Shown: positions 1-40,554, counted from the stretch's first letter. The stretch is DNA of 64,000 nt from Elusimicrobiota bacterium (GCA_016218545.1 JACRDQ010000038.1:66986-130985); one strand, 5' to 3'. Translations and numbers: made by a program. Notes: generated by a model from the sequence alone, not told the origin.

Positions 1-75
1 AGCGGGGCCCATGAAGCCGGGACGAAGCTCTCTGACGCCGTCATCGGCGTCCGCGCGGCGCCGGCCTCGGGCGAC

Positions 76-5131: not shown

Positions 5132-5262
5132 GGGGCGTTCCGCCCAAGTCGGATTCAAGTCATCTTCTTTCCTTGAGGGCCGTCATTCTTATCATCCATG
5201 GCGTTTGGGACAATGTGCTCAATCGGAGCGGCGCCGGGAAGGCCGCTGGGATGGGAGGAGCG

Positions 5263-6165: not shown

Positions 6166-6217
6166 CCGGGGTCGACGCTGAAAGATCATGACCTATAGAA
6201 AAGGAAGGGTGGATACC

Positions 6218-8656
6218 ATGGAGGCTACAATGAGAGGTAAGGGCATGAGCCGCAAGACATTCCTTGGGGCCCTGCTGGCCGTCGCGCTCGCCACGGGTGC
6301 CCAGGCGGCCAATGACGTCATGGACGGCAAGCTCACGGTCGCAGTCGACGCCCAGGTGGGCGTCCAGGCACGGCAGACCGACGACTCCGTCGAGAAGTTC
6401 AACGAGTACCGCGACGTCCAGACGGGCTTCTTCCTCGACGACTTCCGCTTCTCCGCCGATGGGACCGATAGCCCGTACTATGTCGGGTTCAGGGCAAGGC
6501 ATGCGCTCCGGGCCGACGAGACCTATAAGCTCGGTTTCGGCCGGCACGGGCAATACGGCGTGCGCTTCTCCTATGACAGCCTGCCGCACAACTTCGCGCA
6601 AGGCAAGCTGCTCTACAGCGGCGTGGGGACCGGGGACCTGGTCATCGCGGACCAGCTCCAGGCGGACCTGCAGGCTCTCGAGCAGACCGAGAACGACCGC
6701 GACGCCGCGGCCAACAAGGTCAATCCCCTCGTGGACGTCACGGGTGAGGACGCCCTGACCAAGGGCATCGTGGACGGCCTCTACTCGACCAGGGACTTCA
6801 CGGTCCTCAAGCTCAAGAGGGAGAAGGCCAGCCTGGCCTTCGACTACGACGTCGCCAACGACGTCAAGACCTGGATGAAGGTCTCCCACGAGAAGCGCGA
6901 CGGGGCCAGGACCATCAATGCCGGCTCCTACGAGCGGTGGGATCAGGGCGCTGCCGGCTTGACCCACCTCAAGGACCTCTTCACCATCTCGGGCGCGGAG
7001 CTGGCTGAGCCGGTGGACTACAGGACCATCGTGTTCGCGGTCGGAGCCGGCGTCTATAAGAAGGCTTGGCTCGCGGACGCGGAATACTCGTTCACGGACT
7101 TCAACAACGACTACTCGGCCTTGCGCTGGGACAATGCCCTGAGGAGCACGGACGAGATCGGCAGGACCGCGGCGGCGGGCGGGGCCACGCTCGGCAACAA
7201 CTACAACAGGGGCCGGTTCGTCCGGGGCCAGCTCGGCCTTCCGCCGGACAGCCAGTCCCACCAGGTGAACTTCAACGGCTCGGTGGAGCTTCCCCTGCAC
7301 AGCAGGTTCGCGGCCAGCCTGGGTTACGGACTGATCGAGCAGAACCAGGCCTTCAACCCGTTCTCGCTCAACACGGCGATCTCTCCCAGGGCCGGCCTGG
7401 ACGTGACCAACCCGGCCGCGCTCCCGGAGAGCGGTCTCCACGGCGCGGTCACGACCCTGACCCAGAGCTACGTGCTCTCGAGCAAGCCGATCGAGAGCCT
7501 TTCTCTCGCGGCGAAGTACCGCTTCTACAAGTACAAGAACGACACCAGGAGGATCTCGCTGCCCGGCTACGCGGCCTGGGGAGAGAGCGATTGGCGCACC
7601 GTCAGGAGCGACGCGGGCACGGCCGTGCAGAACGACACGCTCGGGTTCACGAAGCACACTGTGGACTTCTCGGCCGACTACAAGGTCGCCAAGCCCCTGA
7701 CCGTGGGCGTGGAGACCGGCGTCGAGTACTGGGATCGCGACGAGGTTCGGGTGGACAAGACCAAGGAGTTCAGCGTGGGCGGCAGCTTCATCTACAGGCC
7801 CGCGGACTTCGCGAGCTTCAAGGCCGCCTACAAGTTCGCCAAGCGCACGGACACGGGCTATATCGAGGGAGCGGTCAAGAAGAACCCGGAGGCCGCCGGC
7901 TTGCGGAACTTCGACTGGGCCGAGCGCACGCGCAACAAGGCCGACGGCAGGCTCCTGCTCTACCCGTCCGACTCCGTTTCCGTGGGCTTCTCCGGCCAGT
8001 TCCAGCGCGACCAGTTCGCCAAGGACACCCGGTTCGGGCTCAAGTCGGTCGAGGCGTCGAACGGGTCCGTGGACGTCTCCTACAGCCCGTCCGAGACGCT
8101 GAACATGTTCGCGAGCTATACCCGGGAGCACCGGCGGAGCAAGATCAAGAATGGGGCCAAGGACGATGCCTTCAACGCGGCCGGGCCTCTAGACGACAGC
8201 TTCACGACCAGCAACTTCAATCCGTACAACGAGTGGAACAGCAACATCTCCGAGGACGTGGACACCCTGGGGTTCGGGGCCAACGTGGCGGTCATCCCGG
8301 AGAAGCTCGAGCTCGACGCGAGCTACAACTTCTCCCACTCGAGGACCGACACCTATACATATAATCCGAACGGCCAGGCGAAGCTCGGCAACGGCGAGGC
8401 CAAGGACTGGCCGCTCGTCAAGAACAGCCTGCACGAGATCAAGGCCGACCTGGGGTACAAGTTCACCAAGAGCATCAAGGCAGGGACTCGCTACATGTAC
8501 GAGGGGTTCCACCTGACGGACTTCGCTTGGGAGAACCTCCAGCCTTACATGCCCGGCTACAGCGCGGAGAACTCGACCCGCTATCTCTTCGCGGACGCGA
8601 CCTACCGGAATTACGACTCGCACGTCGGGATGGTGTACCTGAACTATTCGTTCTGA
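6218..8656 (+). CDS. MtrB/PioB/MtoB-family outer-membrane beta-barrel, about 810 aa. It would be the porin partner of the upstream decaheme cytochrome.
   Basis: The gene follows the decaheme gene after about 50 nt. Signal peptide ...FLGALLAVALATGAQA. The body is Tyr/Gly/Asp-rich with alternating amphipathic strands and ends in ...YLNYSF, the C-terminal Phe typical of outer-membrane proteins. The size matches PioB/MtoB. Start is ambiguous between 6188, 6218 and 6230. Confidence 0.6.
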   Translation: MEATMRGKGMSRKTFLGALLAVALATGAQAANDVMDGKLTVAVDAQVGVQARQTDDSVEKFNEYRDVQTGFFLDDFRFSADGTDSPYYVGFRARHALRADETYKLGFGRHGQYGVRFSYDSLPHNFAQGKLLYSGVGTGDLVIADQLQADLQALEQTENDRDAAANKVNPLVDVTGEDALTKGIVDGLYSTRDFTVLKLKREKASLAFDYDVANDVKTWMKVSHEKRDGARTINAGSYERWDQGAAGLTHLKDLFTISGAELAEPVDYRTIVFAVGAGVYKKAWLADAEYSFTDFNNDYSALRWDNALRSTDEIGRTAAAGGATLGNNYNRGRFVRGQLGLPPDSQSHQVNFNGSVELPLHSRFAASLGYGLIEQNQAFNPFSLNTAISPRAGLDVTNPAALPESGLHGAVTTLTQSYVLSSKPIESLSLAAKYRFYKYKNDTRRISLPGYAAWGESDWRTVRSDAGTAVQNDTLGFTKHTVDFSADYKVAKPLTVGVETGVEYWDRDEVRVDKTKEFSVGGSFIYRPADFASFKAAYKFAKRTDTGYIEGAVKKNPEAAGLRNFDWAERTRNKADGRLLLYPSDSVSVGFSGQFQRDQFAKDTRFGLKSVEASNGSVDVSYSPSETLNMFASYTREHRRSKIKNGAKDDAFNAAGPLDDSFTTSNFNPYNEWNSNISEDVDTLGFGANVAVIPEKLELDASYNFSHSRTDTYTYNPNGQAKLGNGEAKDWPLVKNSLHEIKADLGYKFTKSIKAGTRYMYEGFHLTDFAWENLQPYMPGYSAENSTRYLFADATYRNYDSHVGMVYLNYSF

Positions 8657-8826: not shown

Positions 8827-10191
8827 GTGTCCATGGATGAAGAGCGCGGGTGGTACGGCGTGAGGAAGCTCTCGGTCCTCGTCGTCGACGACGAGGAGGG
8901 CTTCTGCCGCTGCCTCGGCAAGGAGTTCGGCCGCAAGGGCTACGCTGTCTCAGCCGCGCATGACGGCAAGGCCGCCTTGGAGGCCCTCGCGAAGGCCCAG
9001 GCGGACGTCATGCTGCTCGACGTCGTCCTTCCCCGGTTGAGCGGCACGGAGGTCCTCAAGAGGGTCCGGCGGGACCATCCGCGCACCCAGGTCATCATGC
9101 TGACCGGAAACGCCACGGTCGAGACCGCCATCGAGTCCATGAAGCAGGGCGCCTTCGACTACCTGACCAAGCCCGTGAACCTCGCGGAGCTCTGCCTGGT
9201 GGTGGAGAGGGCCTTCGAGGCGACGCGGGTCCGCGCGGAGAACGAGGCCTTGCGCTGGGAGCTGGGCCGGAGGACGAGGTTCGACGAGTTCGTGGGCAAG
9301 CACGCCTCCGTCGTGGAGATCAGGAAGATGGTCTCCAGGGTCGCGGAGACCGACTCTCCGGTCCTCATCTGCGGCGAGACCGGCACGGGCAAGGAGCTGG
9401 TGGCCCGGATGCTCCATCACGAGAGCAGGCGGTCCAAGGCCCGCTTCCTCGCGGTCAACTGCGCCGCGTTCCAGGAGAACCTGCTCGAGACCGAGCTTTT
9501 CGGCCACGAGAAGGGCGCGTTCACGGACGCCGGGGCGCGCAAGCCCGGCCTGGTGGAGCTGGCGGACGGCGGGACCCTTTTCCTCGATGAGATCGGGAAC
9601 ATGAGCCCCGCGGTCCAGGCCAAGGTCCTGCGCCTGCTCGACGCCGGGGAGTACCGCAGGGTGGGCGGCACCGACGACCTGAAGAGCGCCTGCCGCGTGG
9701 TCAGCGCCACCAACCAGGACCTCGGCAAGGCCATCAAGGACGGCCGTTTCCGGGAGGACCTCTACTACAGGCTCAACGTCGTGATGATCAAGACCCCGCC
9801 CCTGCGCGAGCGCAGGGAGGACGTGCCCCTGCTCGTGGAGCACTTCCTCGACAAGGTGCATGCCTTGCAGACCCGGGGCCGCAAGACCATGAGCCGTCCT
9901 GCCCTGGACCTGATCCTGGGCCATCCCTGGCCGGGGAACGTCCGGGAGCTCGAGAACGCGGTGGAGCGGGCCGTCATCCTGTCCGAGGGCTCGGTCATCG
10001 AGCCCTCGGCCCTGTGCCTGCCGTGCCTGGAGGCGGGGCGCAGCGTGGGCGACGCTCTGGCCGATGTCGAGAAAGCCCACATCCTCGCTGTGCTCGGCCG
10101 CACCGGGGGGAACAAGAGCCAGGCGGCGGCCATCCTCAAGGTCGACGTCAAGACGGTCTACAACAAGCTCAAGGAATTCGGGATCGCGTAG
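8827..10191 (+). CDS. Sigma54-dependent response regulator of the NtrC family (REC, AAA+ and Fis-type HTH domains)
   Basis: A receiver domain is present (VLVVDDEEGF..., D in LLDVVLP). The Walker A motif is GETGTGKE. GAFTGA-type and ESELFGHEKGAFTDA segments are present. The C-terminal HTH is AAILKVDVKTVYNKLKEFGI. Confidence 0.85.
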   Translation: MSMDEERGWYGVRKLSVLVVDDEEGFCRCLGKEFGRKGYAVSAAHDGKAALEALAKAQADVMLLDVVLPRLSGTEVLKRVRRDHPRTQVIMLTGNATVETAIESMKQGAFDYLTKPVNLAELCLVVERAFEATRVRAENEALRWELGRRTRFDEFVGKHASVVEIRKMVSRVAETDSPVLICGETGTGKELVARMLHHESRRSKARFLAVNCAAFQENLLETELFGHEKGAFTDAGARKPGLVELADGGTLFLDEIGNMSPAVQAKVLRLLDAGEYRRVGGTDDLKSACRVVSATNQDLGKAIKDGRFREDLYYRLNVVMIKTPPLRERREDVPLLVEHFLDKVHALQTRGRKTMSRPALDLILGHPWPGNVRELENAVERAVILSEGSVIEPSALCLPCLEAGRSVGDALADVEKAHILAVLGRTGGNKSQAAAILKVDVKTVYNKLKEFGIA

Positions 10192-11373: not shown

Positions 11374-14300
11374 CTATCGGGAGGCTCCCACGGGGACGGC
11401 GGGGCTCGCGGATTCCAGCGGCGAGCCTGAATCGTTGTGAGGGGGCGCCCGGGCCGCGATGCCGCGGGGCTTGGGCTTGCGCTTGGGGGGCGCCGGCTTC
11501 CAGCCCTGGAGCCAGAGGCGCTGGAAGTAGACGGTGTAGCCCGCCAGGGTGGCGTCGTCGTCGAAGAAGTTGGCGTTCTCGAAGGAGTTGTTCTCGGCGT
11601 TGGGGGAGTAGTTGAAGGAGCCGGTCTCGAGGAACTTCCCGTCGACCATCATGAGCTTGTTGTGCATCTTCTCGAACATGGGGTCGCCGTCTTCCCCGCG
11701 CGGGCCCTGGATGAGGCGGGTGTCGAAGCCGTGCCAGGCGAACCAGTCGTCGATCTTGGAGACCTTGGACTGGGAGTAGTCCATCACGATGCGGATGGCG
11801 ACCTCGGGCCGGTTGTTCTTGACCTCGAGGAGGGCGTCCGCGATGGCCTGGGAATAGAAGCTGAACATCGCGATCTCGATGGAGACCTTGGCGGCCTTGA
11901 TGGCCCGGATGAGGGCGGCCTCGATCGCGCCCTGCGGGGAGAAGAGCTGGCGCGGGAAGGCCTCATTGCCCAGCTTGATGGGCTGGTCCGTGTCCTGGGG
12001 CGGGGGAGGGTACTCGGGCCTGCGCAAGTGCGTGCCCGAGGCCTCGCCGGCGTCCTGGGCCTCCTGCATGGACCGCAGGGTCCGGGCCAGGATCTCGTCG
12101 AGCTTGGCCATGTCGATGTCCTCGGCCAGGCCGCGCATGTACTGGAAATACTTCAGGTGGGCCGCCACCCGGCCCGCGTCCTTGGTGAAGATGAAGTTCT
12201 CGAAGTGGCTCTGCTCGGCCACGTCGGTCAGGTTGTAGGAGCCGAAGCCGACGAGCCCGTCGTCGACCACCATGATCTTGTTGTGCATGACCCCGCTGCG
12301 CTTGCCGCGCAGGATCTTGACGTCGAATCCCTCCTTGATGAGGGCCACGACCTGGGGCTTGGGCTTCCTGGGCTGGTCCTCGTGGTTGATGCCCGAGGTG
12401 TAGACATGGTTGCGGTCGAGCACGAGCTCGACCTTGACCCCGCGGGTCTTGGCCCGGCGCAGGGCCTCGAGGATGGACTCGGAGGTGAACTCGTAGAGGG
12501 CCAGGCGGATGGTCTTCTTGGCCGCGTCGATGGCCTTGATGATGTTGGGGGCGATGGGGTGGTCCGGCAGGAGCGCGTAGGAGGGCAGTTGGGCGCCGTT
12601 GAAATCCACGATGGGCGCGGCCGGGAGGTCCGGGAGGTCCGGCGCCGGCGGGGTGGGCTTGGGCGGCGGAGGGTTGAGGATGTCGTGCAGGAGCTCCTCA
12701 TCCGTGGGGAGGACGGGCAGCTGCGCGGGCTTGGCGAACGCCTGCGCGATCTTGAACATGTGCTCGAAGGCGAAGGAGAAGGCCGCGGCGTCGGTCTTGT
12801 CGTCGAGGAAGTGCGCGTTCTCGTAGTTGTCCACCGAGGCGCGCTTCGTCCAGTTGGCCGAGCCGGTCTCGACGATCCTGCCGTCGAGGATCATGAACTT
12901 GTGGTGCGTCTTCTCCGCCATGGGGAAGTCGCTGTCCGGGTTGGGGCCGGCCAGGGTCTTGACCGCGATGCCCTTGCTCGCCAGCCACTGGACGAACGGG
13001 CCGAAGTACTCCGAGGTGGACTGGCTCTCGTCCATCACCATGCGGACCTTCACCCCGCGCTCATGGGCGCGGACCAGGGCGTCCGTGATCCTGCGCGAGC
13101 GCAGGGCGAACATGGCCACGTCCACGGACTTCTTGGCCGCGTCCAAGCCCTTGACCACCGCGTCCTCGAACGCGGTGCCGTCGGGCATGAAGAGGATGGC
13201 GGGCAGGGCCGTGCCGTTCAAGTCCACGGTCCCGGCCTGGGTCCCGGCCGGGGGCTTGGCCGGGGTCTGCGGCCAGGAGTGCTCCCTGGCCTGGGCGAAG
13301 GGCACGCTGATGCCCAGGAGGTAGTCGTAGTACTCTTTGAGGGCCCAGACCCGGCTCTTCTGCGTGGTGAAGAGGGCGTTCTCGTAGTGGCTGTTCTCTG
13401 AGGTGAAGGAGTAGTTGTAGGAGCCGAACTGCGCGAGCCTGCCGTCGAAGATGGCGAACTTGTTGTGGTTGATGCCGTAGGCCGTCACCCCGCGCAGGAC
13501 GCGCAGGTCGTAGCCGTCGCGGATGAGGCTCCAGAGCTCGTTGGAGCGGCGCATGCGGTAGGCCGCGTCCGGGTCGTTCTTGGGGAAGACGTTGGAGTAA
13601 TCGACGATGAGTTGGATCTTGACCCCGCGGCGCTTGGCCCGGGCCAGGGCGTCCATGACGGCCCGGTTCTTGAACTCGTAGAGGGCCAGGCGGATGGTCT
13701 TGCGGGAGGCCTTGATGGCCTTGACGATCTCGTCTTCGACCGGGACATTGGGCCGCAGGGCCACGGAGGGGAACTCTTTGTTGTTGAAGGTGACCGTGCG
13801 GACCGGATAGTCCGCGCCGCCGCCGTCGTCCGAGTTGGAGGCAGGCTCCTCGGCCTTGGCCCTGCCCCTGCCCGCGGTCTCGTAGTCGAGCCCGGCGGAC
13901 TCGTAGTCGAGCCCTGCGGCCTCGTAGTCGATGGGGCTGGCGGCCAGGTCCGCGCCGGCGACCGCGCCTGCGGCCGCGCTCTCGGCGCCGAGCTTGAAAT
14001 CGAAGCTGCGGTCCGCGTACTCCTTCTGGCCCTGCAGGTCCGCGGCCTTGGGCTCGGCGAAGGGGACCTCGGCCGAGAGGCGCTCGAAGGCGCCGCGTCC
14101 CGCCTCCTCGGAGCCGGCCGCTTCCTGGGTCTTGACCGGGGTCTTGGAGACCGACAGGACGGAGGACGGCAGCGAGGTCTCGGGAGTCGCGAAGCTTCGG
14201 CCTGCCTCCGGTGCCGCGGGGAGGGCGGGCTGGGCCAGGACGGGCAGGCCCGGCTGCGCGGTGTCGGAGAGAGCGGGAGCGGCCACGCTGTTGACGCTCG

Positions 14301-14493
14301 GGGCGAGGAAGCCCGAGCCGCCGGTGAGCCGGTCGAGCCGCAGGTCCATGGCCGGGGCCGACATGGACACCGGGACCGCGGGGATGGCGTTGTTGCCGGA
14401 CGGCAGGCTCACGGCTCGGATCTGCTGGGCCAGCCCCGACGAGGGCGTGGTCCAGAGGATGATGGCGAGCGCCCAGAGCGCTGCGCGAGGCAT
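11374..14493 (-). CDS. Secreted PLD-superfamily protein with four HKD motifs (two complete catalytic units), 1039 aa
   Basis: Signal peptide MPRAALWALAIILWTTPSSGLAQQ, then a Pro/Ala/Leu-rich low-complexity leader. Four HxK(x4)D(x6)GSxN motifs are present: HNKFAIFDG..GSYNYS, HHKFMILDG..GSANWT, HNKIMVVDD..GSYNLT and HNKLMMVDG..GSFNYS. Confidence 0.8.
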   Translation of the reverse strand: MPRAALWALAIILWTTPSSGLAQQIRAVSLPSGNNAIPAVPVSMSAPAMDLRLDRLTGGSGFLAPSVNSVAAPALSDTAQPGLPVLAQPALPAAPEAGRSFATPETSLPSSVLSVSKTPVKTQEAAGSEEAGRGAFERLSAEVPFAEPKAADLQGQKEYADRSFDFKLGAESAAAGAVAGADLAASPIDYEAAGLDYESAGLDYETAGRGRAKAEEPASNSDDGGGADYPVRTVTFNNKEFPSVALRPNVPVEDEIVKAIKASRKTIRLALYEFKNRAVMDALARAKRRGVKIQLIVDYSNVFPKNDPDAAYRMRRSNELWSLIRDGYDLRVLRGVTAYGINHNKFAIFDGRLAQFGSYNYSFTSENSHYENALFTTQKSRVWALKEYYDYLLGISVPFAQAREHSWPQTPAKPPAGTQAGTVDLNGTALPAILFMPDGTAFEDAVVKGLDAAKKSVDVAMFALRSRRITDALVRAHERGVKVRMVMDESQSTSEYFGPFVQWLASKGIAVKTLAGPNPDSDFPMAEKTHHKFMILDGRIVETGSANWTKRASVDNYENAHFLDDKTDAAAFSFAFEHMFKIAQAFAKPAQLPVLPTDEELLHDILNPPPPKPTPPAPDLPDLPAAPIVDFNGAQLPSYALLPDHPIAPNIIKAIDAAKKTIRLALYEFTSESILEALRRAKTRGVKVELVLDRNHVYTSGINHEDQPRKPKPQVVALIKEGFDVKILRGKRSGVMHNKIMVVDDGLVGFGSYNLTDVAEQSHFENFIFTKDAGRVAAHLKYFQYMRGLAEDIDMAKLDEILARTLRSMQEAQDAGEASGTHLRRPEYPPPPQDTDQPIKLGNEAFPRQLFSPQGAIEAALIRAIKAAKVSIEIAMFSFYSQAIADALLEVKNNRPEVAIRIVMDYSQSKVSKIDDWFAWHGFDTRLIQGPRGEDGDPMFEKMHNKLMMVDGKFLETGSFNYSPNAENNSFENANFFDDDATLAGYTVYFQRLWLQGWKPAPPKRKPKPRGIAARAPPHNDSGSPLESASPAVPVGASR

Positions 14494-14670: not shown

Positions 14671-15240
14671 ATGGGACTCTTTGATCTGCTGAAGGGACTG
14701 CTGGGCGGCGGGAGCGACAAGGGCAAGGTCGAGCCCGCCTTCATCCAAGGCGAGAGCGGCCAGGTCATCGTGCACCGGCATTCAGGCTTCCGGTTTCCGC
14801 AGGACGTGAGCGAGTATGTGGGCGTGGGCCCCACCCAATACGACGAGAAGGGCCTCGACGTCTCGGTGGGCTATAACCATGCCAAGCTCATGGGCCTGGC
14901 CGTGACCGTCTATGTCTATCCCGATTCCGGGGGGCCTGGGTCCCTGGCCGGACAGTACGAGGGGTGCAAGGCCGAGGTCAGCGGAGCGCACGCGAGCGTC
15001 AAGGTCCTTTCCGAGGAGGTCCTCTCCGGGGCTCCGAACGGGACCCAGACCGAGGGGCGCAAGGCCTTGTTCTCCTTTGAGGACGAGCTCGGTGGCATCA
15101 ATCTCTCCTCCCTGTCGGAGCTCTGGCTCTTCTCCCACAAAGGCTTCTTCATCAAGTTCCGCGCCAGCTACCCGGATTCGATGAAGCCGCACGCGCCGCA
15201 GGCCGTGGTCGGTCTTATTAAGGAACTTAGTTGGCCCTGA
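14671..15240 (+). CDS. Hypothetical protein, 189 aa
   Basis: ORF with a plausible start and no recognisable motifs. It is convergent with the giant CPBP fusion gene. Moderate GC, about 62%. Confidence 0.35.
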   Translation: MGLFDLLKGLLGGGSDKGKVEPAFIQGESGQVIVHRHSGFRFPQDVSEYVGVGPTQYDEKGLDVSVGYNHAKLMGLAVTVYVYPDSGGPGSLAGQYEGCKAEVSGAHASVKVLSEEVLSGAPNGTQTEGRKALFSFEDELGGINLSSLSELWLFSHKGFFIKFRASYPDSMKPHAPQAVVGLIKELSWP

Positions 15241-15286: not shown

Positions 15287-18200
15287 TTACAGCGGACCAG
15301 CGTCTTCAAAAGTGCCTTTTCGTATTTTGTCTTCCTGATCCAGGTAGTCCAACAAGGTCTTGTGAGTCTCTATCCAAGGATGGGCCACCCGCTGTTCGGA
15401 CAAATCTCTTCTGGCAGCGATGTTCGCGATCGTACTTTTCCGCAATCCAGCCCTGAGCAGGCGGCGTAGGAGTGGAGAGTTGTCGCGACCATGCACGTAT
15501 TCTTTTCTCAGACCCGCGAAGAATGCCTCATCCAAACAGCCGAAGACAGCATCGAAATATGCCTTCTTCAGGCCGCACCGGGCGCTCAAGATTTCCAATT
15601 GATTCCATATGTATTCTTCCGCTTTTTCCAATTCCAGCTGGCTCAGGCTTCCCGCGGCGATGCCTTGCAGGGCGGCATGGAGGGTCTGCTTGGCCTTTCT
15701 TTCCGAAGTCTGCCACTCCACGAGTTGTTGGATATGGCCGCTGATGGTATCGCTACGGAGGATCTGGGTCCGTTTGCGTGCATATTCAGGCAGCGGCTTG
15801 GCGTAAGAAAAAGCCAACGCCACGGTTCGGTCCACCCGCCTTCGATTCACTCCTGCCAGCCGCAGAAGCCCCAGATCGAACTCATGAAATGCGTCGTCCC
15901 CATAGGGGCCGATCTTGCCGCCCTTGACCTCGCCTCCCTGGGTGGCGTAGTGAACCAAAGCCGTGGTCAAGGAATGGGTCAGATAACTCGCCTGATTATT
16001 GTCGTTCTCCGCGCTGCCTCGATAGGCGCTTAGCAGAAGGTCGAACACCGCGGGGATGACGAGGATTTTTGAGCCGACGTTCCAAAACCTGAATCCCGCT
16101 TCTTTCAAGGCCCCAGGCATGATCTGTGGATCCAAGCCCAGGGCCCGCCACAAACGCGCCACATCCCTTTTTGTGAATGAGACTTCTCCTATCTTGCGTC
16201 TTAGGGGAACCATCCCCTTGAGCACCGTGTCCCGGCCGGCATAGGTCAACAGCAACTCCGTGTTCTGCGAAATGATCGCATTCTGATGATTCCACAAGAT
16301 GGCCCGCATGATGGTCGCGGGATCTGCCTGTTCCTGCTGGATCCGATCGTACTGCTCCGTTTGTAGCCAGTATCTGATGCGGATAAGATCCGGGGCGGCC
16401 TGATAGCGGAAGAACATCCCCGGATTGATGTCTCGGATGGAGCGGCTATACAGGTTGCGGGTATAGTCGTCCGCGCGCAGGATTTCGGCCATCGCCTCAT
16501 AGGGCAGGCGGCGGGTCAAGTCTTCGGGGAGGTTGAGATAGAAGTTCAGATGTTCGAAATCCAATTGTTCGTCGTTGGAGGAGATCGCCTTGGCGATAGG
16601 TGAGAGGCCGGCGGGCTGGTTCAGCATCCTGTGAGCTTGGCGGAAATCAGGCATCTGCATCAAGCCCTTGATCACATGATCCGACATGCTGCCGCTGACG
16701 CCCGCAGCCTTCATGGATTTGATCGCCGCACCCAGGAGCCGCGACAAGCCCGCGTGAAACCAGAAATCAGCTCGTTGGTCGGCATCGGGAGCGGCCGAAA
16801 GCATGTCCAAAAGGGAATCGGGGGAATCCCGCGGCAAGCCCGCCTTGAACAAAGAGGGACCTAGCTTGAGGAACGCAGCGACGGCCGTTGGAGGATCGTG
16901 ATGTTTCGCCAAATGAAAGACGAGGTAGATGCCGTCGCCGTACAAGCTGCTCCCCCATCGGGCCTTGGCCGAGATCAGGGTATGAAGGGCTGTGGCGCTG
17001 GCCGCGGCATCAGGACGTCGACTGAGCGAGACCAAGGCATCGGACATATGGGGGTCATGAGAGACTACACTCAAGGAAACCATGAGTTCGCGCAGGGCCG
17101 CAGCGTCAGACTTGGGATCAGGCCCGGCGGCCACGGACGAGAGCATGTCGATCGCGGTTTGTTGCGACACGTCGGTAGCGACCCGATACATGGCCGCTAA
17201 AGGCTCAGCGGCGCCGTCGTGAAGGAGTCGCCTCAAATCGATCTGAGGCTGGCCGGCCAATGCGCGCAGAGCCGCCCCTGTTTGGCCGTTATCGAGGCCG
17301 GCTTGTCTAAGGATGGCGGCGACTTGCCCCACGGCCTGGGTTGGGGCGATGTCGCCCAGAACCAGCGGGGCGCCGCCATCCGTGGGCATCATGTCGTTGA
17401 TTGCGGAATCAAGGAAGCGGCTGCTCGCAGCGTCCTCGTTGCCCGTACGGCGGGATTCCGTGACGCGAGCATCGAGCAGCCGGAGAGAATCTACGGCCAC
17501 AGGCGCGTCCGCAGCTTGCGCTTGCTCAGGCGGGACAACGGCTTGACGTCCGCCGCCAGCGTATGGTCTTAGGAGGGCGTAGAGCGTCAGGCTGAAGGCC
17601 AGCGGCAGGCTGACGGCCATGGCGGCGGGCCAGAGCACCAGGGGGCCGAAGACCAGCCCCGCTGCTGCGAGGAGGGCCCATCCGGACACGGGGTTGGCCG
17701 GCCGTTCCTTGCCGAGCATGCTCCTCAGGGACGCCGCCGCGGCGGCGAGCCCCACCGCGGCGATGCCCAGGGTCGCGGCCCTCCCCGCCGGGGCGAAGAG
17801 CAGGCCCGCCATGGCCATGGCGAACCACATGCCGTTGTAGAAGGCGTGGTGCGTGATGGAGCCCGCCAGCCCGTGCTTCTCGAAGACCCATGAGAGCATC
17901 AGGGAGCCCGCGAGCCTCAGGCCGAAGAGGAGGGGGTCGGAGGTCTCGTGCAGGGCCACGAAAACGAGCGAGCTCGCCAGGGCCGCGACCCCGAAGGCGC
18001 CCCGGCTCCAGAACTTCGAGACGACCTTCTTGAGGCCGCCCTGCAGGAACTGCCGGAACAGGAGCTCCTCGAGGACCGGGGCCATGACCGACACGGAGAA
18101 GAGGAGGCTGGCGATCTCGCTGATTCCCATGCCTGGGCCGAACACCGGGCCCTGGTAGTTCGAATGCGGGACGTAGCCCAGGGCGCCTGCGAGGGCCTTG

Positions 18201-18913
18201 GTGCCCATGATGAAGGCCACGGTCAGGAACGCGGTGACGTAGCCGACCTTGGCCGCCTTGGAGAACCCCTGGCCGCGGTGGAGGTCCTCGATGGGGTCTT
18301 TCTCGTTGCTCACGGCCGAGAAGAGGGGGCGGTCGAGTCCAGGTCCGGCCGCGCGCGCAGACGCCTGGCTGCCCTGGACCGGGACGCCGGGCTCGGCGAG
18401 TCCGGGGAGGACGGGCTGGCCGTCGAAAACCGCGGCTAGGCCGCCTGTCAAGGACTCCGACGGAAGGGCCTTGGCCCGTACAGGAAGGACCTCAACGGCC
18501 GCTTCCGCCAGGCCTTTCGCGATGCCTCTCTCGATGCCCGGGACCGGGCTTGCCAGGCCGAGCTGGGATGCCGGGCCAGGCAAGGCTGAAGGGAGTGCCT
18601 GAGGGAGGTCGGGCAGCGGCAGGAGCGGGGCCACGGGCAGGTCCGGTGCCGGGGCCTGGAGGAGCGTTCCGCCTGGCAGGTCCGGCCTGATGGCCGGGGC
18701 TGGGGGCAGGCCAGCCTGGACCTGGAAAGAGGACGGCTGGCCGGCCTGTCCGAGGTCGGCTCGGGCCGTGGTCCTGGGAAGGATGACGGGAAAGGCGGAG
18801 GACGCGGCTCCGGCCGCGGTCACGGCCCTGACCTGGGCCAGGACGGCCGGGGGAAGGACCAGGCCGTGCAGGAGAGCCGCGCATAGCAAGACGGCGGCGG
18901 CTCGCCGGATCAC
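15287..18913 (-). CDS. Giant fusion protein of 1208 aa. It has a signal peptide, an LP-rich leader, a CPBP (CAAX/Abi) intramembrane metalloprotease domain, and a C-terminal domain of about 750 aa with unknown function and anomalously low GC.
   Basis: The CPBP motifs are present: EELLFRQ (the EExxxR motif), FVALHE (the FxxxH motif) and ITHHAFYNG (the HxxxN motif), together with multiple TM helices. The C-terminal domain occupies coordinates 15287 to about 17540. Its GC is about 50-62% against about 70% in the flanks, as counted in 60-nt windows. It has no recognisable motifs. Confidence 0.7.
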   Translation of the reverse strand: MIRRAAAVLLCAALLHGLVLPPAVLAQVRAVTAAGAASSAFPVILPRTTARADLGQAGQPSSFQVQAGLPPAPAIRPDLPGGTLLQAPAPDLPVAPLLPLPDLPQALPSALPGPASQLGLASPVPGIERGIAKGLAEAAVEVLPVRAKALPSESLTGGLAAVFDGQPVLPGLAEPGVPVQGSQASARAAGPGLDRPLFSAVSNEKDPIEDLHRGQGFSKAAKVGYVTAFLTVAFIMGTKALAGALGYVPHSNYQGPVFGPGMGISEIASLLFSVSVMAPVLEELLFRQFLQGGLKKVVSKFWSRGAFGVAALASSLVFVALHETSDPLLFGLRLAGSLMLSWVFEKHGLAGSITHHAFYNGMWFAMAMAGLLFAPAGRAATLGIAAVGLAAAAASLRSMLGKERPANPVSGWALLAAAGLVFGPLVLWPAAMAVSLPLAFSLTLYALLRPYAGGGRQAVVPPEQAQAADAPVAVDSLRLLDARVTESRRTGNEDAASSRFLDSAINDMMPTDGGAPLVLGDIAPTQAVGQVAAILRQAGLDNGQTGAALRALAGQPQIDLRRLLHDGAAEPLAAMYRVATDVSQQTAIDMLSSVAAGPDPKSDAAALRELMVSLSVVSHDPHMSDALVSLSRRPDAAASATALHTLISAKARWGSSLYGDGIYLVFHLAKHHDPPTAVAAFLKLGPSLFKAGLPRDSPDSLLDMLSAAPDADQRADFWFHAGLSRLLGAAIKSMKAAGVSGSMSDHVIKGLMQMPDFRQAHRMLNQPAGLSPIAKAISSNDEQLDFEHLNFYLNLPEDLTRRLPYEAMAEILRADDYTRNLYSRSIRDINPGMFFRYQAAPDLIRIRYWLQTEQYDRIQQEQADPATIMRAILWNHQNAIISQNTELLLTYAGRDTVLKGMVPLRRKIGEVSFTKRDVARLWRALGLDPQIMPGALKEAGFRFWNVGSKILVIPAVFDLLLSAYRGSAENDNNQASYLTHSLTTALVHYATQGGEVKGGKIGPYGDDAFHEFDLGLLRLAGVNRRRVDRTVALAFSYAKPLPEYARKRTQILRSDTISGHIQQLVEWQTSERKAKQTLHAALQGIAAGSLSQLELEKAEEYIWNQLEILSARCGLKKAYFDAVFGCLDEAFFAGLRKEYVHGRDNSPLLRRLLRAGLRKSTIANIAARRDLSEQRVAHPWIETHKTLLDYLDQEDKIRKGTFEDAGPL

Positions 18914-18920
18914 GTTCAGG

Positions 18921-21900
18921 TCACTCCTTCGCGGCCTTCTCGACGGCGTTCTCAGGCAGTCCGGGCATGCGCTTGGGCGCGTTCCAGAAGGCCAGGGCCG
19001 CGATGCCGTAGGCGATGCCGATGGGCACCAGGAGCGCGGGGAAGGCCGTGGTCAGCATCCCGGCTCCGAGGGAGAGCAGGCCGTAGCCCATGGAGGTCGA
19101 GGTGTTGACGAAGGAGCCGGAGGTCCCGAAGACCTTGCCGAGGTCGGACTTCTTGGTGCTCGTCTGCATGTAGGTGTTGAAGGACACGATGGCAGGGCCG
19201 CTGAACATGCCGTAGATCAGCATGGTCAGGAAGAGCGCGGTCTGCACGCTCATGAAGGGGATGAGGCCCGGCATGGTCCAGACGAGGAAGGGCAGCCACA
19301 CGGCCAGGAGGCCCAGGCCGAGGAACTTGATCCAGCCCTTCTGGGTGATGTGGTTGGCGAGCCACATGAGCCCGGCTGCCGCGGCCACCGCGGCCGCTGC
19401 GGCGAGGATGCTGCCGGGCACCAGGCCCGTGTAGACCCAGGTGGCGGCCAGGGCGAGGACTCCGCCCTGGATGAGGCGCTGGGCCGGGAACTTGCCGATC
19501 AAGGGGATGCGGATGTCCGGCAGCTTGACCTGCGAGGAGTTGGCGATGAGGGTGCCGAAGAAGACCGCGCCGGTGAGCTTGCCCAGGAGCATGGCCTTGC
19601 CTGCCTGGCCCACCAGGGTCACGGCCATGAGGGGCAGGGCGAAGTTCTGGAACGGGTAGGTCACCGCGGCCTGGAGCGAGGAGAAGAGGATGGTCGAGAA
19701 CTGGCGCAGGGTCCAGCGCTTGCCCTCGGACGAGAGAGCCTTGGTCTGCTCGGCTCGCTTGGCCAGGACCGCTTCGAGCTCCGCGGCGCGGGCTTCCCAG
19801 CCTTGGGCCTTCTCCGCCTTCACGCGCTCGAGCTCGGCGCGGTCCACAAGGTCTGCCGCCGCGTTCTCCTTGAGGGTGAGCGCGAGCTCCTTCTCGCGCT
19901 CTGAGACCTCGCGGGTGTCGCCGCGCCGCACCGCGCGCACCGTGTCCGTGTTCCAGACCCAGTAGAAGAGGGCCAGGGCGATGGGGATGGGAGAGTGCAG
20001 GAAGGAATAGGCCGCGATCGAGGCTCCGAAGAGGAGGGCTTCCTTCCAGTATTTGCGGAGGAAATCCGGGATCAGGGCCTTGAGCGCGGGCTTGCCGCCC
20101 TGCTTGACCGAGTCGAGCCAGGCCTTGACCCGGGACTTAAGGGTCTGGGGGGTCCCGGCGGCCGCGTTCGTGGGCGGCGTGTCGTTGGGCATGGAGAACC
20201 AGAGGTAGGGGGCCAGGAGCAGGCCGTGCACCCCGGCGGAGATGAGGAAGGCGATCATCGGGTTCCACTTGTCGATGATGGAGCCGATGCCCAGGATCAG
20301 GCCCAGGATCGCCTGCATGGACACGTAGTGGACCGAGCCCAGAGCCATCACGGTGCCCTGGTGCTTGCCCGCCAGCCTCCTTATGTAGGCGTTCTCCGTG
20401 GTCATGATGGCGGAGAGCACCCAGCCGTTGGCGATGGAAGACAGCAGCAGGGTCCAGAAGTTGAGGATGCCGAAGTAGGCGAAGGCAGGCAGCATCAGGG
20501 TCAGGACCGCGCGCACCACCATGTTGATGACCATGGAGTTCCGGGCCGAGAGCTTGTCCGCGAGGTTGCCGTTCAAGGGGCCGGTGGCGATGGCGGCCAG
20601 GGGGCCGAGGGCCATGAGCACGCCGTAGACGGTCCAGCCCACGGCCGGGGCGGCGAGGAAGGGGTAGGCGATGGAGGTCAGGATGAAGCTCGCGATGGAG
20701 AAGGTGCGCGAGATGAAGAGCGCCTTGACCGCGCCTTTGTTGAAGTCCGAGACTGGAGCCGCGGCCGCGCCTTTGAGGATCTCGGTGGAGGCAGGGCCGC
20801 CCTCGGTCGGCCAGACGAAGGTGTTGTCGAGCCTGGGGTCCGCCTTGCCGCCCACGGAGATGGCGAGCGCGCCCTGGGCGGCCTTGAGCATGTTGCGGTC
20901 CGTCACGCGGGAGCCGAAGAACTGGTCGCCCACGATGAGCAGCTTGGAGACCGGGGTTTCCTTGCCGTTGAAGCGTCCCAGCCAGCCTGCGAGCTTGGAG
21001 AAGAGCTTGCCCCTGATCCCCATGCCGGCCAGGTCGCGCATCCTGCCGATGTAGCCCAGGTGGGTCCTCAGCCATTCGACTCCGATGGCCTTGTCGACCT
21101 TGGAGAGCGAGATGTAAGGAGGGAGGGTCGGGTCCTTGGCCATGCGGCCGATGACCTCGACGTCCACGCCCCGCGCCTTGAGCTCGGCCTGCATGAGCTC
21201 GGCCGCGGCCCTGACCTCGGCCTCGGCCGTCCCGACTGGAAGGGGCCGGAAGTAGCCGTCCTTGGAGAGCTCCTCCTCCCTGCCGTTGAAGATCACGCTG
21301 CCGTACTTCTCCTTCACGGCCTGGCCCGCGGCCTTGATGGCGTCGGTCTCCGAGGCCTGCCAGGAGACGGACACGTCGCGCACGAGGCTGGGCTCGGCCT
21401 TGGCGTCATAGAGGACGGCGCGGGTGCCTTTGGAGGAGACGACGCCCAGGACTCCCTTTTGCTCCGGCGTCATGCCGGATAAAGACTGGAGGATGGTGAC
21501 CTCCTTGGGGTTCTCGGAGGCGTCCGGCCGGTCCGTGAGGATGACGGGCTGGATGCCCGCGTCAGCCGCGGTCTTGAGGGCTTCTGCGGTCTCGGGCGCG
21601 ATGGGCTTGGTCCAGGGAGCCAGGGTGTCGTCGTAGTCGAAGATGGCCAGGGAGGGCTTGTTCTGGGAGAGCTTGGCCAAGATCTGCTGCGCGTGGCCGG
21701 GGCTTACGGGCCGCAGGCTCAGGATCACGCCCCGGCCGGCCAGGGCGCGGAGGGCCTGACGGTGGACCTCGTAGTCCGAGGCTCCGCCCCGGGGATTGGA
21801 GTCCGCGATGCGGCGCAGGGACGCTTCGGTCTCGGCGCCGGGCTGGGAAGCGATGGAGTCCACGGCCTTCTTGCGGTCGTTCTCCGCCTTGGCGGAGTCC

Positions 21901-27023: not shown

Positions 27024-27835
27024 GAGCGGCCCTTGCGCTGGGGCCGCTCGGCGGGAAGCTTGCGCAGGTGCTCGGCCGCGGCCTTGGCCTCGGGGCTCTT
27101 GGGGAAGTCCAGGGGGATGGATTCGAGGTACTGCTTGGCCTCCGAGATGTTCCTCCTGAGCCGGATGAGGCAGAGCGCGTACATGAGGCGCGTGGACGGC
27201 GTCATCTTGCTGTTGGGGAAGCGCTCCAGGGCGGTCGCGAACTGCCGGCCCGCGGCCTCCCAGCGGCCCATCCCGAAGTAGGCCTCGCCGAGGTTGTAGA
27301 CCGCGACGTCGATGAGCGAGCCCGTGGGAAAGCGCGCCGCGTACTCCTCGAAGCCCTTGGCGGCGAGCTCGTAGTCCTTCTTGGCGAGCCGCACCTCGGC
27401 GGTGAGGAAGAGCTCGGTGGGGGAGGTGCCGGCGCCGACCTGGGCCACCTTGCGCTCCATCTTCTGCATGTCCTTCTTCTGCTGCTCGACGTCCTCCTTG
27501 AGGGACTCGCCCAGGGCGGAGACCTTCGTGGAGATGCCGGTGCCGACGTTGGCGACGCCGGAGCTCACGTCGTCGATCTTGGAGCCGAGGCGCTCCATGT
27601 CGCCGCGCAGGTCCTTGACGGTCTCGGTGAAGACGCCGAGGTCGGTGTGGAGCTGCTTCATCTCGACGATCATGTCGGCCTGGTTGGTCTGCATGGAGCC
27701 GATCGTCTTCTTGAGCTCGAGGACCTGGAACTTGAGCTCGTCGGCCTGGTTCTCAAGCGAGATCACGTCCCGCTGGGTCGCGACGCATCCGGTGAGGAAG
27801 GAGACCGCGGCCGCCAGGAAGAGGGCGCGCCTCAT
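27020..27835 (-). CDS. cpoB: CpoB/YbgF Tol-Pal-associated TPR/coiled-coil protein
   Basis: Begins at the internal Met MRRALFLAAAVSFLTGC. A coiled-coil region is followed by TPR repeats (AVYNLGEAYFGMGRWEAAGRQF). The 472-aa ORF in the track is a fusion artefact with the pal frame. Confidence 0.7.
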   Translation of the reverse strand: MRRALFLAAAVSFLTGCVATQRDVISLENQADELKFQVLELKKTIGSMQTNQADMIVEMKQLHTDLGVFTETVKDLRGDMERLGSKIDDVSSGVANVGTGISTKVSALGESLKEDVEQQKKDMQKMERKVAQVGAGTSPTELFLTAEVRLAKKDYELAAKGFEEYAARFPTGSLIDVAVYNLGEAYFGMGRWEAAGRQFATALERFPNSKMTPSTRLMYALCLIRLRRNISEAKQYLESIPLDFPKSPEAKAAAEHLRKLPAERPQRKGRS

Positions 27836-28389
27836 CGGTTCTCTCCGGCCTTGGCCGCGCGCCTGCGAACCTGGGTCTCGCCCCGGCGGTTCTTGGACCA
27901 GCAGTCCTCGGAGGACTCGTCGCAGACCGGCGACTCCTCGCCGTAGGAGATGGTGGCCAGGGACCCGCCGGACACGCCCAGACGGATGTAGTACTCGCGC
28001 ACGCCCTTGGCCCGGTTCTGGCCCAGGGAAAGGTTGTATTCGATGGTGCCGCGCTGGTCGCAGTGTCCCGCCACGAGCACCTCGAGCTCCGGGTGCTCCT
28101 TGATATACTCCGCGTTCTTCTTGAGGGCCTCGAGGGAAGCGTCCGTGAGGGCGTAGCTGTCGTAGTCGAAGTAGACGACGGCGAGCTCCGGGGTGGACAC
28201 GAACTCGGTGCCGCGGATGCTGGCCTCGGTCACGTCCACGCCCGGGGTGTAGGCCGGAGACTCCAGCCCGGAGCCCGCCCCGGCCGCATCGCCGGACTTG
28301 GAGCCTTTCTTGCGCTTGGCCGTGGAGCAGGAGCAGAGCCCTCCGCAGACGACCGCCAAGGCCAGACCGATGGTGAGAATCCGCTTCAT
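27832..28389 (-). CDS. pal: Peptidoglycan-associated lipoprotein Pal (OmpA-like)
   Basis: The lipobox is LAVVCGGLCSCS. The OmpA-C domain is present (VLVAGHCDQRGTIEYNLSLGQNRAKGVREYY). The stop overlaps the cpoB start (ATGA). Confidence 0.85.
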   Translation of the reverse strand: MKRILTIGLALAVVCGGLCSCSTAKRKKGSKSGDAAGAGSGLESPAYTPGVDVTEASIRGTEFVSTPELAVVYFDYDSYALTDASLEALKKNAEYIKEHPELEVLVAGHCDQRGTIEYNLSLGQNRAKGVREYYIRLGVSGGSLATISYGEESPVCDESSEDCWSKNRRGETQVRRRAAKAGENR

Positions 28390-28541: not shown

Positions 28542-29855
28542 ATGAACATCATGCTGGCCGCGGCGGTCCTGGCCCTGAACCTCGTCTGCGTCCGCATGGC
28601 ATCTGCGGACGAGGGACGCTGGGCGCAGGCCATGGCCGCGGCCGCAGGGGCGGCGGCCCTGCCCGGGTCATTCGACGGCATCCGGATCCCGGGCGGAGCG
28701 GCCCCCATGCTCCCCTTGCCGCGGTTGCCGGTCTTCCGGGCCGCTCCTCCGGCGGGGACCGTTCCGACGGAGGTCGCGTTCAACGGGATCACGCTTCCCC
28801 GGAGCGCGTTCACCAGCAGGGAGTCGCTCAGCGGGCACCTCGTCCGGGCCATCGACGCCGCGAAAGGCAGCCTCAAGCTCCTGCTCTACGACCTCAGCCT
28901 CGAGGACGTGGCCGCCGCGCTCCAGCGCGCCGCTTCGCGCTCTCCGTCGGTCGAGATCATGGTCGTGCTCGACCAGGGACACGTCTTCCCCAGGCGGGGC
29001 CGCAAGGCCAATGCCGTCATCACCAGGCTCCTGGCCGACCCCCGGATCCAGGCCAGGATCGTGGCGGGCTTAGGCGACTTCGGCCTCATGCACAACAAGA
29101 TCGCCGTGTTCGACGGGGTCCTGGTCAAGACGGGCTCGTTCAACTGGACGAAGTCCGCGGAGAAGTCGAACTACGAGAACGCGGTCTTCTTCGACGACGC
29201 CGAGCGCGTGGCGGCCTTCAGCGCCTATTTCGACTGGGTCTGGGCCTTGTCCGGCCCTCCCGACGCGCCCCGGCCTCCGCCCACGGTCGAGGGCGCCCCG
29301 CCCGAGGACGCCTCCCCCGGCGTGGAGTTCCACGGCGCCCGCCTGCCCGCCGCGGCCTTCTCGCCCAAGGGCGGCACGGCCGGCCGCCTGCTCGACGCCA
29401 TCGCTATCTCGAGGGAGTCCATCGACGTCGCGATGTTCAGCTTCACGAGCAAGACGCTCGCCGAGGCCCTGGCCGAGCGCAAGGCCGCGGGCGTGCGCGT
29501 GCGGGTGGTCCTGGACCGCAAGCAGTCGCGCAACGCCAACAGCGTGCTGGCCTACCTCCGCTCGCGGGGCGTCGACGTCGCGGTCATGGACGGCAAGACC
29601 AAGGCGGGCGTCCAGCACAGCAAGTACGCGGTCTTCGACGGCGCGGTCGTCGAGACGGGCTCTTACAACTGGACGGTCAACGGCGAGTCCTACAGCTTCG
29701 AGAACGCGGCCTTCCTCTCCGACCCGGGCTGCGTGGCGGGCTTCCAGGCGGACTTCGAGACGCTCTGGAGCCTGGGCCGCAAGGAGCTCCCGGCCTCCCT
29801 GGCTGCCTCGGATGGTCCTCAAGAGGACCCGTCTGAAGGCGCCGGAACCGACTAG
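28542..29855 (+). CDS. Secreted PLD-superfamily protein with two HKD motifs
   Basis: A signal peptide is present, together with an LPLPRLP leader. The two motifs are HNKIAVFDGVLVKTGSFNWT and HSKYAVFDGAVVETGSYNWT. Confidence 0.8.
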   Translation: MNIMLAAAVLALNLVCVRMASADEGRWAQAMAAAAGAAALPGSFDGIRIPGGAAPMLPLPRLPVFRAAPPAGTVPTEVAFNGITLPRSAFTSRESLSGHLVRAIDAAKGSLKLLLYDLSLEDVAAALQRAASRSPSVEIMVVLDQGHVFPRRGRKANAVITRLLADPRIQARIVAGLGDFGLMHNKIAVFDGVLVKTGSFNWTKSAEKSNYENAVFFDDAERVAAFSAYFDWVWALSGPPDAPRPPPTVEGAPPEDASPGVEFHGARLPAAAFSPKGGTAGRLLDAIAISRESIDVAMFSFTSKTLAEALAERKAAGVRVRVVLDRKQSRNANSVLAYLRSRGVDVAVMDGKTKAGVQHSKYAVFDGAVVETGSYNWTVNGESYSFENAAFLSDPGCVAGFQADFETLWSLGRKELPASLAASDGPQEDPSEGAGTD

Positions 29856-40100: not shown

Positions 40101-40167
40101 CCGGGCTCGAGACAAAGAGGAAGCCCCCGGCGCGAGCCGGGGGCTTCCTCTTCGGCGCGGACCCGGG

Positions 40168-40452: not shown

Positions 40453-40490
40453 AATCCCTCCTCTCCCAAGCAGGGAGTCAGCATTTCAAT

Positions 40491-40539: not shown

Positions 40540-40554
40540 AGGGATGGAGCGACC

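Follow-up and report, generated by a model that had tools for sequence, protein, structure and literature searches.

A predicted exported protein with four HKD motifs of the phospholipase D superfamily, encoded in a genome of the Elusimicrobiota

The DNA analysed here is a window of 64,000 nucleotides from an Elusimicrobiota bacterium (GCA_016218545.1 JACRDQ010000038.1:66986-130985), and it carries two genes, A and B, whose predicted exported proteins belong to the phospholipase D (PLD) superfamily. Open reading frame (ORF) calling placed gene A at 11374..14493 on the minus strand, with an ATG start and a length of 1039 amino acids (aa). Gene B, with 437 aa, is located at 28542..29855 on the plus strand. 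In a homologue search the gene A protein was 100% identical to HY924_12905 from a metagenome-assembled genome of an Elusimicrobia bacterium in NCBI, and gene B was identical to HY924_12945; these two entries share one contig of 284 kb. The GC content at third codon positions (GC3) of gene A was 0.96, as is usual for the native genes of the window. A promoter scan showed no promoter-like sites around gene A, and terminator-like sites were present only at chance level.

The six-frame translation of the whole window was searched with a strict PLD pattern (regular expression H.K.{4}D.{4,8}G[ST].N). Protein A had four strict HKD motifs, at aa 343, 530, 737 and 944, all of the form HxK(x)4D(x)6GSxN, and protein B had two, at aa 184 and 359; no other match was found in the six frames outside these two genes. 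Chance matches were 0.0 per window in 200 DNA shuffles and 0.0002 per shuffle of the residues of A. The Pfam model PLDc_2 covered four stretches of protein A (E 1.9e-95, 316.1 bits, cut-off 27) and two stretches of protein B (E 1.5e-46, 158 bits, same cut-off). A first-pass annotation of the window had described four HKD motifs in one chain at gene A and a second secreted protein with two motifs at gene B. Both descriptions are matched with the motif and Pfam results and, for B, with a signal-peptide-like start.

Among 67 full-length homologues of A, the H, K, D and GSxN sets of all four domains (D1 to D4) were either invariant or kept in at least 90% of the sequences. In D1, H343, D350 and G357 were invariant and K345 was conserved in at least 90%. 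In D2, G516, P517, G544, S545 and N547 were invariant, H530 and K532 were at least 90% conserved, and a conserved GPNPxSDFPxAEK loop was located immediately ahead of the catalytic His. Invariant residues were H737, K739, D744, G751, S752 and N754 in D3, and H944, K946, G958, S959 and N961 in D4. Because of this conservation, none of the four domains has decayed to a pseudo-site, and both of the active sites proposed below appear to be under selection. The two motifs of B were also conserved in its 15 homologues. The public names "DUF1669 domain-containing" and "cardiolipin synthase-like" are misleading for these proteins. The features of the two genes and of two neighbours of gene A are listed in Table 1.

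Table 1. Features of genes A and B and of two genes beside gene A, with positions counted from the first nucleotide of the window
Feature	Residues (aa)	Position	Strand	Remarks
A, signal peptide	1-22	14428..14493	-	probable signal peptidase I site after GLA; without lipobox Cys
A, Ala/Pro/Ser/Gly-rich N-terminal region	23-222	13828..14427	-	mostly disordered
A, domain D1, odd type	223-405	13279..13827	-	HKD aa 343-360 = DNA 13414-13467
A, domain D2, even type	406-590	12724..13278	-	HKD aa 530-547 = DNA 12853-12906
A, acidic Pro-rich linker between catalytic units	591-627	12613..12723	-	isoelectric point (pI) 4.05
A, domain D3, odd type	628-795	12109..12612	-	HKD aa 737-754 = DNA 12232-12285
A, acidic linker with two short helices	796-837	11983..12108	-	AlphaFold and sequence
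A, domain D4, even type	838-1005	11479..11982	-	HKD aa 944-961 = DNA 11611-11664
A, variable disordered C-terminal tail and stop	1006-1039	11374..11478	-	AlphaFold pLDDT <50 for aa 1013-1039
B, signal peptide	1-22		+	
B, domain B1, odd type	76-245	28767-29276	+	HKD 29091-29144
B, domain B2, even type	263-420	29328-29801	+	HKD 29616-29669
189-aa ORF		14671-15240	+	divergent from A; GC3 0.84
CPBP-protease-domain protein		15287-18913	-	1208 aa, exported; CPBP/Rce1-like domain aa 268-362

The six domains of the window can be divided into two types. Identity within a type was 39.6% for D1 and D3, 36.1% for D2 and D4, 37.7% for B1 and D3, 37.3% for B2 and D4, 32.5% for D1 and B1 and 33.8% for D2 and B2, and identity across the types was 28-33%. 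A neighbour-joining tree, built without bootstrap, covered 70 domains taken from 14 proteins with four domains and 7 with two. Its deepest split separated the odd domains (D1, D3, B1) from the even ones (D2, D4, B2), with B1 as outgroup to D1 plus D3 and B2 as outgroup to D2 plus D4; the matrix of class-mean identities agreed with this tree. The order of protein A is odd-even-odd-even, and protein B is one odd-even unit.

The simplest history that would fit these sequences has three steps. A Nuc-like gene would have been duplicated and fused to an odd-even unit as in B, one lineage of this unit would then have been duplicated whole, in tandem, to give A, and the tandem duplication would predate the radiation of the four-domain family within Elusimicrobia. 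The domains of one two-domain protein of 561 aa (P0100) fell inside the D3 and D4 clades and not with B1 and B2, and this protein looks like half of a four-domain gene, derived secondarily.

As B consists of a single odd-even unit, D1 would pair with D2, and D3 with D4, in the way the lobes pair in ordinary bilobed PLD enzymes. The units matched the bilobed alpha/beta fold, in which two motifs meet at the lobe interface, and their best whole-unit structural match was SpPLD (7E0M), at 16-21% identity. In SpPLD the catalytic His pair is 6.7 Å apart at the lobe interface (PMC8004604). The proposed pairing and His-His geometry in A are drawn from this superposition and from the architecture of B. 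The AlphaFold model of A had a predicted template modelling score of 0.77 despite about 230 disordered residues, which hints that the two units may be held in a defined relative position. The proposal of the first-pass annotation that four motifs give two complete catalytic centres is consistent with four complete and conserved domains, which we infer to be paired in this way.

The N-terminus of A reads MPRAALWALAIILWTTPSSGLA followed by QQ, and that of B reads MNIMLAAAVLALNLVCVRMASA followed by DE, with the likely cleavage before the last two residues in each case. Cleavage sites were assigned by eye and by a heuristic (a hydrophobic 9-mer, then a small-x-small site). With this heuristic, a signal-peptide-like start was found in 65 of the 67 members of the A family, and in the other two the start appears to be mis-called. 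Past residue 40, no hydrophobic segment of 19 residues was found in either protein (maximum Kyte-Doolittle value 1.31 in A and 1.09 in B), and no lipobox was found in A or B. From these features we infer that A and B are exported via Sec as soluble proteins with a cleavable-looking signal peptide, as the first-pass annotation had also claimed. The best reading of the destination of A, from its sequence, is the periplasm or the outside of the cell. A gene for a SurA-like peptidyl-prolyl isomerase (PPIase) was located immediately upstream of the A homologue, on the same strand, in 34 loci, which fits a periplasmic folding pathway. Pfam scans of 25 window proteins revealed no secretion-system genes. 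The related nucleases Nuc and NucT remain periplasmic (PMC5714352).

The signal peptide of A is followed by a stretch which had been called an LP-rich leader in the first-pass annotation. The stretch does exist, but it is rich in Ala, Ser, Pro, Leu and Gly and has about 200 residues. The AlphaFold confidence (predicted local distance difference test, pLDDT) was below 50 at aa 15-132 and 171-220 and 79-86 at aa 141-170, and within the latter part a helix at aa 153-167 was confidently predicted; its F164 is the sole invariant residue of the whole region. A 21-bp tandem repeat in three copies (13870-13931) encodes GLDYE(A/S/T)A heptads at aa ~190-210, and the length of the disordered region holding them varies across the A family. 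We also considered whether A has an N-terminal module in common with the giant exported proteins beside it ("LAQQIRAV" in A and "LAQVRAV" in the neighbour) and rejected this: BLAST gave only low-complexity matches, with a best E of 0.007. At the other end of A, the C-terminal tail was poorly conserved among the homologues, and no sorting signal was recognisable in it.

The profile searches place the domains close to nucleases. Among the NCBIfam models, the top matches of A were NucT models and DrmC. The cardiolipin synthase (Cls) models were much weaker: A scored 67.8 bits with cardiolipin synthase TIGR04265 (cut-off 290), 55.5 bits with ClsB NF008427 (cut-off 281) and 15.9 bits with PssA NF006946 (cut-off 314). 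A profile made from the four domains of A and the two of B was searched against all PDB sequences, and it ranked NucT (2.9e-27), Nuc (5.2e-26) and MitoPLD/Zucchini (3e-25) ahead of SpPLD (2e-13), FAM83B (1e-11), PLD4/PLD3 (~1e-8), PssA (2e-4) and Streptomyces PLD (6e-4). Each window domain has about 170 aa and aligned along the full length of Nuc and NucT. In the six window domains the HKD motif was invariably followed by GS instead of GG and, further on, by an E-N; this E-N aligned with the SEN of Nuc. The downstream acidic residue of Nuc is E122. The GS form after HKD is a nuclease pattern (PMC8004604). From the profile ranking, the GS and the E-N matching SEN, every domain can be assigned as a Nuc-type single-HKD module. 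The first-pass annotation had argued against cardiolipin synthesis and had proposed subfamily models as a check. The models favour the branch of the nucleases Nuc, NucT and Zucchini, and the three synthase models stay far under their cut-offs. The opposite outcome, an assignment to Cls or Pss families with the signal peptides as uncleaved anchors, did not occur: the scores were low and the cleavage motif was present.

Homologues of A formed about 80 database clusters of ~950-1050 aa, after which the scores fell steeply; the named ones all belonged to Elusimicrobia/Elusimicrobiota. In a species survey which scanned one genome per GTDB species, the four-domain gene was present in about 60 Elusimicrobia species-level genomes, two of them closed or near-closed chromosomes. 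Beyond Elusimicrobia the survey gave no four-domain gene, and the matches there were weak, had two domains and were confined to Bdellovibrionales. The six-domain profile had 34,119 matches at E <=0.001 among 1.84 billion representative proteins. The four-stretch proteins topping this list are the family of A, and the best 150 of the 34,119 matches are mostly two-stretch proteins of ~350-550 aa. Two strict motifs were present in 104 of 145 newly returned proteins (P0104-P0248). The family of B is a smaller set of two-domain proteins, likewise from Elusimicrobia, and B-like genes were found in several genomes which carry A.

A few other chains with four HKD domains were identified. WP_127015610.1 of Anoxybacter fermentans (1021 aa) has a lamin-tail domain (LTD) and four PLDc_2 domains, a metagenomic family of ~1330 aa has the same composition, and a 1372-aa Elusimicrobia "lamin tail domain-containing protein" has two PLDc_2, two LTD and again two PLDc_2 domains. 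Two further metagenomic families also carry four HKD domains. The first-pass annotation had called a chain with four motifs uncommon, which is right for proteins overall, but the arrangement recurs in about 60 Elusimicrobia species and in these other families. The four-domain architecture is uncommon yet recurrent, and it is kept across much of the phylum Elusimicrobia. A full-text literature search on four-HKD or tandem-PLD proteins and on nucleases or PLDs of Elusimicrobia returned nothing relevant.

Among characterised proteins, Nuc of the Salmonella plasmid pKM101 (1BYR/1BYS) and NucT of Helicobacter pylori (6EHI), both single-HKD endonucleases, are nearest to the domains of A. Nuc and NucT are one-domain homodimers with one active site, whereas A has fused odd and even partners with the unit doubled to four domains; neither A, with two fused pairs, nor B, with one, is a one-domain homodimer. 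Unlike Nuc and NucT, A also carries the disordered N-terminal region of about 200 residues, and it misses the equivalog cut-offs of NucT. Zucchini/MitoPLD (PLD6; 4GGJ, 4GEL) has one Nuc-type domain with a single HKD motif, which is 28-31% identical to the window domains taken one by one. It is a eukaryotic membrane-anchored homodimer, a single-stranded RNA nuclease in the biogenesis of PIWI-interacting RNA which is also reported as a cardiolipin hydrolase. The lysosomal 5'-3' exonucleases PLD3 and PLD4 (8V08, 8Q1K) are distant from A (profile E ~1e-8) and have one site per chain; they are glycosylated type II membrane proteins. SpPLD of Serratia plymuthica is a secreted PLDc_2 protein with two HKD motifs and one catalytic unit, compared with two in A (PMC8004604), and its profile E of 2e-13 compares with ~1e-26 for the nucleases. 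The proteins with LTD and four PLDc_2 domains resemble A in having four HKD domains in one exported chain. They scored 170-240 bits, compared with 550-730 for the A family, which has no LTD, and they likewise bear no functional name from their source. An LTD is also found in the extracellular nuclease ExeM, where its role is unresolved (PMC6085458). The LTD fusion in these distant families may give indirect support to a nuclease function, by analogy.

Taking these results together, we favour, with modest confidence, the reading that A is a periplasmic or extracellular, metal-independent HKD phosphodiesterase with two sites per chain, most likely a nuclease. For nucleic acid (DNA and/or RNA) as the substrate of A we see roughly even chances from the sequence evidence. 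A nucleic-acid substrate is favoured because sequence, size, loop economy and motif detail are nearest to those of proven nucleases, because the proteins are predicted to be exported as Nuc and NucT are, and because a polymeric substrate would best explain catalytic units in tandem. In PLD chemistry a His attacks the phosphodiester to form a phospho-His intermediate, and the partner His serves as general acid and then activates water, with no metal involved. Each chain of A would have two complete active sites, each built from two His/Lys/Asn sets and each following this ping-pong mechanism independently of metal ions: one His would attack the phosphodiester to give phospho-histidine, the other would protonate the leaving group, and water would then free the product. 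The enzyme may work as a non-specific endonuclease like Nuc and NucT, for the scavenging of nucleotides and phosphate or for the breakdown of incoming DNA. By being linked, the two units could bind a polymer with higher avidity or cut it more often, and the long disordered N-terminal segment might be a spacer. B would be a single-unit version of the same activity.

Several observations weigh against this assignment as a nuclease. Even with the four domains added up, the NucT equivalog models stayed under their cut-offs, at 212.7 bits (cut-off 297) and 187.3 bits (cut-off 225). The catalytic region as a whole is not basic, with a pI of 7.1 in A and a family median of 6.0, values which reflect bulk charge only (as does the pI of 9.6 of D1), and this near-neutral bulk charge gives no support for a DNA-binding surface. 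The domain pairing and the His-His geometry are themselves indirect readings. The conserved neighbours of the A family (PPIase, EamA transporter and beta-eliminating lyase block) are uninformative on nucleic acids. The Nuc-type branch is not purely nucleolytic: the PDB entry of MitoPLD/Zucchini is labelled as cardiolipin hydrolase. SpPLD, the closest bilobed structure, is described as a phospholipase D (PMC8004604).

In the main rival reading, the same pair of sites would hydrolyse the head groups of phospholipids, and A would be exported as a phospholipase D or a phosphodiesterase of lipids, for the scavenging of lipid phosphate, remodelling of the outer membrane or attack on neighbouring cells; we regard this reading as possible but rather doubtful. 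It holds this place on account of the lipid claims for Nuc-type proteins, the non-basic catalytic region, the missed NucT cut-offs and the uninformative neighbours. The best whole-unit structural match of A, the secreted SpPLD of 416 aa, is described as a lipid enzyme (PMC8004604), MitoPLD was deposited as one, the near-neutral or acidic catalytic region would suit such a role, and in this lineage A and B flank the Tol-Pal envelope cluster. Against this, the domain profile puts the nucleases at least 12 orders of magnitude ahead of SpPLD and more than 20 ahead of Streptomyces PLD, and the adjacency to Tol-Pal is lost in more distant relatives. The domains are minimal, at ~170 aa, and are without the extra loops that form a gate or hydrophobic pocket in true lipid PLDs (PMC8004604, PMC5714352), and their GS-GS motif pattern is the nuclease pattern (PMC8004604). 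A bolder version of the nuclease reading, which we consider unlikely, takes A, from the hint of a rigid four-lobed body in its structural model, as a single-chain "dimer of dimers" of fixed geometry which grips one duplex at two points and serves as a phylum-wide core exoenzyme. Such a protein could cut both strands per binding event or chop processively, free-living Elusimicrobia would use DNA or RNA from their surroundings as food with no need for metal cofactors, and the conserved helix with the invariant F164 might be a docking or auto-inhibitory element.

The remaining explanations seem highly improbable to us. The first-pass annotation had mentioned lipase effectors of the type VI secretion system (T6SS), with the ORF at 14671-15240 as a possible immunity gene. 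T6SS cargo is not known to use a Sec signal peptide, and a Sec-like start occurs almost throughout the A family, so a Tle5-type (PldA/PldB-like) effector is scarcely credible; no T6SS component such as vgrG or hcp was found among the 25 window proteins in Pfam scans, different genomes have different genes downstream of A, and the match to 7V53 was weaker than that to Nuc-type units. The 189-aa ORF did not hold up as an immunity partner. It is divergent from A, lacks a signal peptide and has no match in Pfam, NCBIfam or PADLOC, and among ~70 loci a neighbouring copy was present only in the two closest relatives (L008 and L009, ~70% identity), so that it is lineage-specific. A membrane-anchored cardiolipin or phosphatidylserine synthase with the N-terminus as an uncleaved anchor has a similarly slight chance: its fold match is generic to the superfamily, the Cls, ClsB and PssA scores given above are far too low, the synthases work at the cytoplasmic face, those of ClsA type with N-terminal transmembrane helices, there is one short hydrophobic segment only in A, which is followed by a small-x-small cleavage motif, and the disordered spacer with four domains is unlike the synthases. 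A role in defence, as a DrmC-type nuclease of DISARM or a related PLD directed against phages, might be suspected from the PADLOC DrmC models, which match every domain (best 4.4e-36), and from the NCBIfam model DISARM_DrmC_I (NF038319), which gave 147.6 bits, over its cut-off of 133. But this score is the sum of four generic Nuc-like domain matches, and the likeness to DrmC is present only at domain level, for which we rejected the defence reading and hold it very improbable. DrmC acts in the cytoplasm, and A is predicted to be exported. PADLOC gave no match on the three neighbours scanned (14671-15240, 15287-18913 and 18921-22526), Pfam scans of the window proteins showed no resemblance to drmA, drmB or a methylase, the Pfam domains of genes at the related loci had no relation to DISARM either, and in most genomes the gene occupies a conserved, housekeeping-like position. 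The NCBI name might also imply a catalytically dead DUF1669/FAM83-like scaffold, and we give this hardly any credit: the catalytic residues are complete in all four domains and conserved family-wide, and the DUF1669 model, which shares the fold, gave only a weaker side-hit.

Most loci of the A family share a conserved, housekeeping-like chromosomal position. A divergent block beside the A homologue includes genes for DUF971 (40 loci) and a beta-eliminating lyase (35 loci), together with a hybrid sensor kinase, GlcD/GlcF-like oxidoreductases and a GAF-HD protein, and an EamA transporter gene is often downstream (25 loci). None of the SurA-like PPIase gene, the DUF971/lyase block and the EamA gene was found in the window. 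Here and in the closest relatives (L008-L010), A instead comes after a string of genes for pal, ybgF, tolB, a HEAT protein and a giant MFS protein. B is located at the divergent upstream end of this string, so A and B bracket it. The MFS gene is directly upstream of the A homologue in L010, and the 189-aa ORF lies in between in L009. In the window the gene for the CPBP-protease-domain protein is additionally inserted near A, and because it is missing at the same position in L009 and L010, it looks like a recent insertion. About 840 further residues of this protein match nothing, and its GC3 is 0.76, compared with 0.96 for A. The giant MFS protein (18921-22526, minus strand, 1201 aa) has a signal-peptide-like start, with the MFS domain confined to the C-terminal half (aa 603-1135), and the HEAT-repeat protein (~22621-25700, minus strand) has ~1000-1100 aa; after tol-pal, the same order of the giant MFS and HEAT genes was observed in L006.

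The pal gene (27832..28389, minus strand) encodes a 185-aa lipoprotein with an OmpA domain and is followed by ybgF-like and tolB genes. The first-pass annotation had placed B divergently from pal, and this is the case, with 152 bp between pal and the start of B. The synteny of B with tol-pal was kept in a relative with a 57%-identical B homologue (L006) and absent for B-like genes of ~40% identity. Since the adjacency is lost at ~40% identity, we rejected a functional link of B with Tol-Pal at family level, and the adjacency of B and pal is probably not functional. At one locus with 40% identity (L007, 8001-11328), the B-like gene is followed after 8 bp by a same-strand gene for an exoribonuclease of RNase II/R type (RNB). 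The pair is near an integrase-containing element. As a single case, this pairing is a weak hint at a role with nucleic acids.

Other parts of the window hold respiratory and signalling genes. At 5173-8656 (plus strand) there is a multihaem c-type cytochrome gene (paired CXXCH, MtrA/NrfB-like) and then one for an outer-membrane porin of MtrB/PioB type (Pfam 2.6e-114). The two look like a porin-cytochrome module for extracellular electron transfer, with a HAMP/sCache sensor kinase and an NtrC-type response regulator beside them (flanks 3428-5131 and 8827-10191). Three consecutive paralogues of 819, 783 and 963 aa at 37641-45831 (plus strand) have a signal-peptide-like start, TPR and a C-terminal Ser/Thr kinase. 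Two tandem genes for membrane-associated GGDEF diguanylate cyclases are located at 46352-48945 (plus strand), and a gene at 30281-31303 (minus strand), by a response regulator just downstream of B, is homologous to an L006 gene annotated as PAS-GGDEF. The window holds a locally dense set of genes for cyclic di-GMP signalling.

To our knowledge, active sites of the PLD superfamily are always formed from two HKD motifs, which are brought together either by a homodimer, as in Nuc, NucT and Zucchini, or by one internal duplication, as in classical PLDs and PLD3/4. The A family would represent a further step, in which a second duplication gave one exported chain two catalytic centres, both complete and each conserved independently of the other. 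This layout has persisted for a long time in a phylum that is poorly known and for the most part uncultured. Neither the chemistry nor the fold is new, the genes are already public, and there is no conflict with current understanding. Should A prove to be a nuclease, its natural tandem form and independence of metals might be of practical use, and it would offer a candidate route by which groundwater Elusimicrobia may draw phosphorus and nucleotides out of nucleic acids in their environment.

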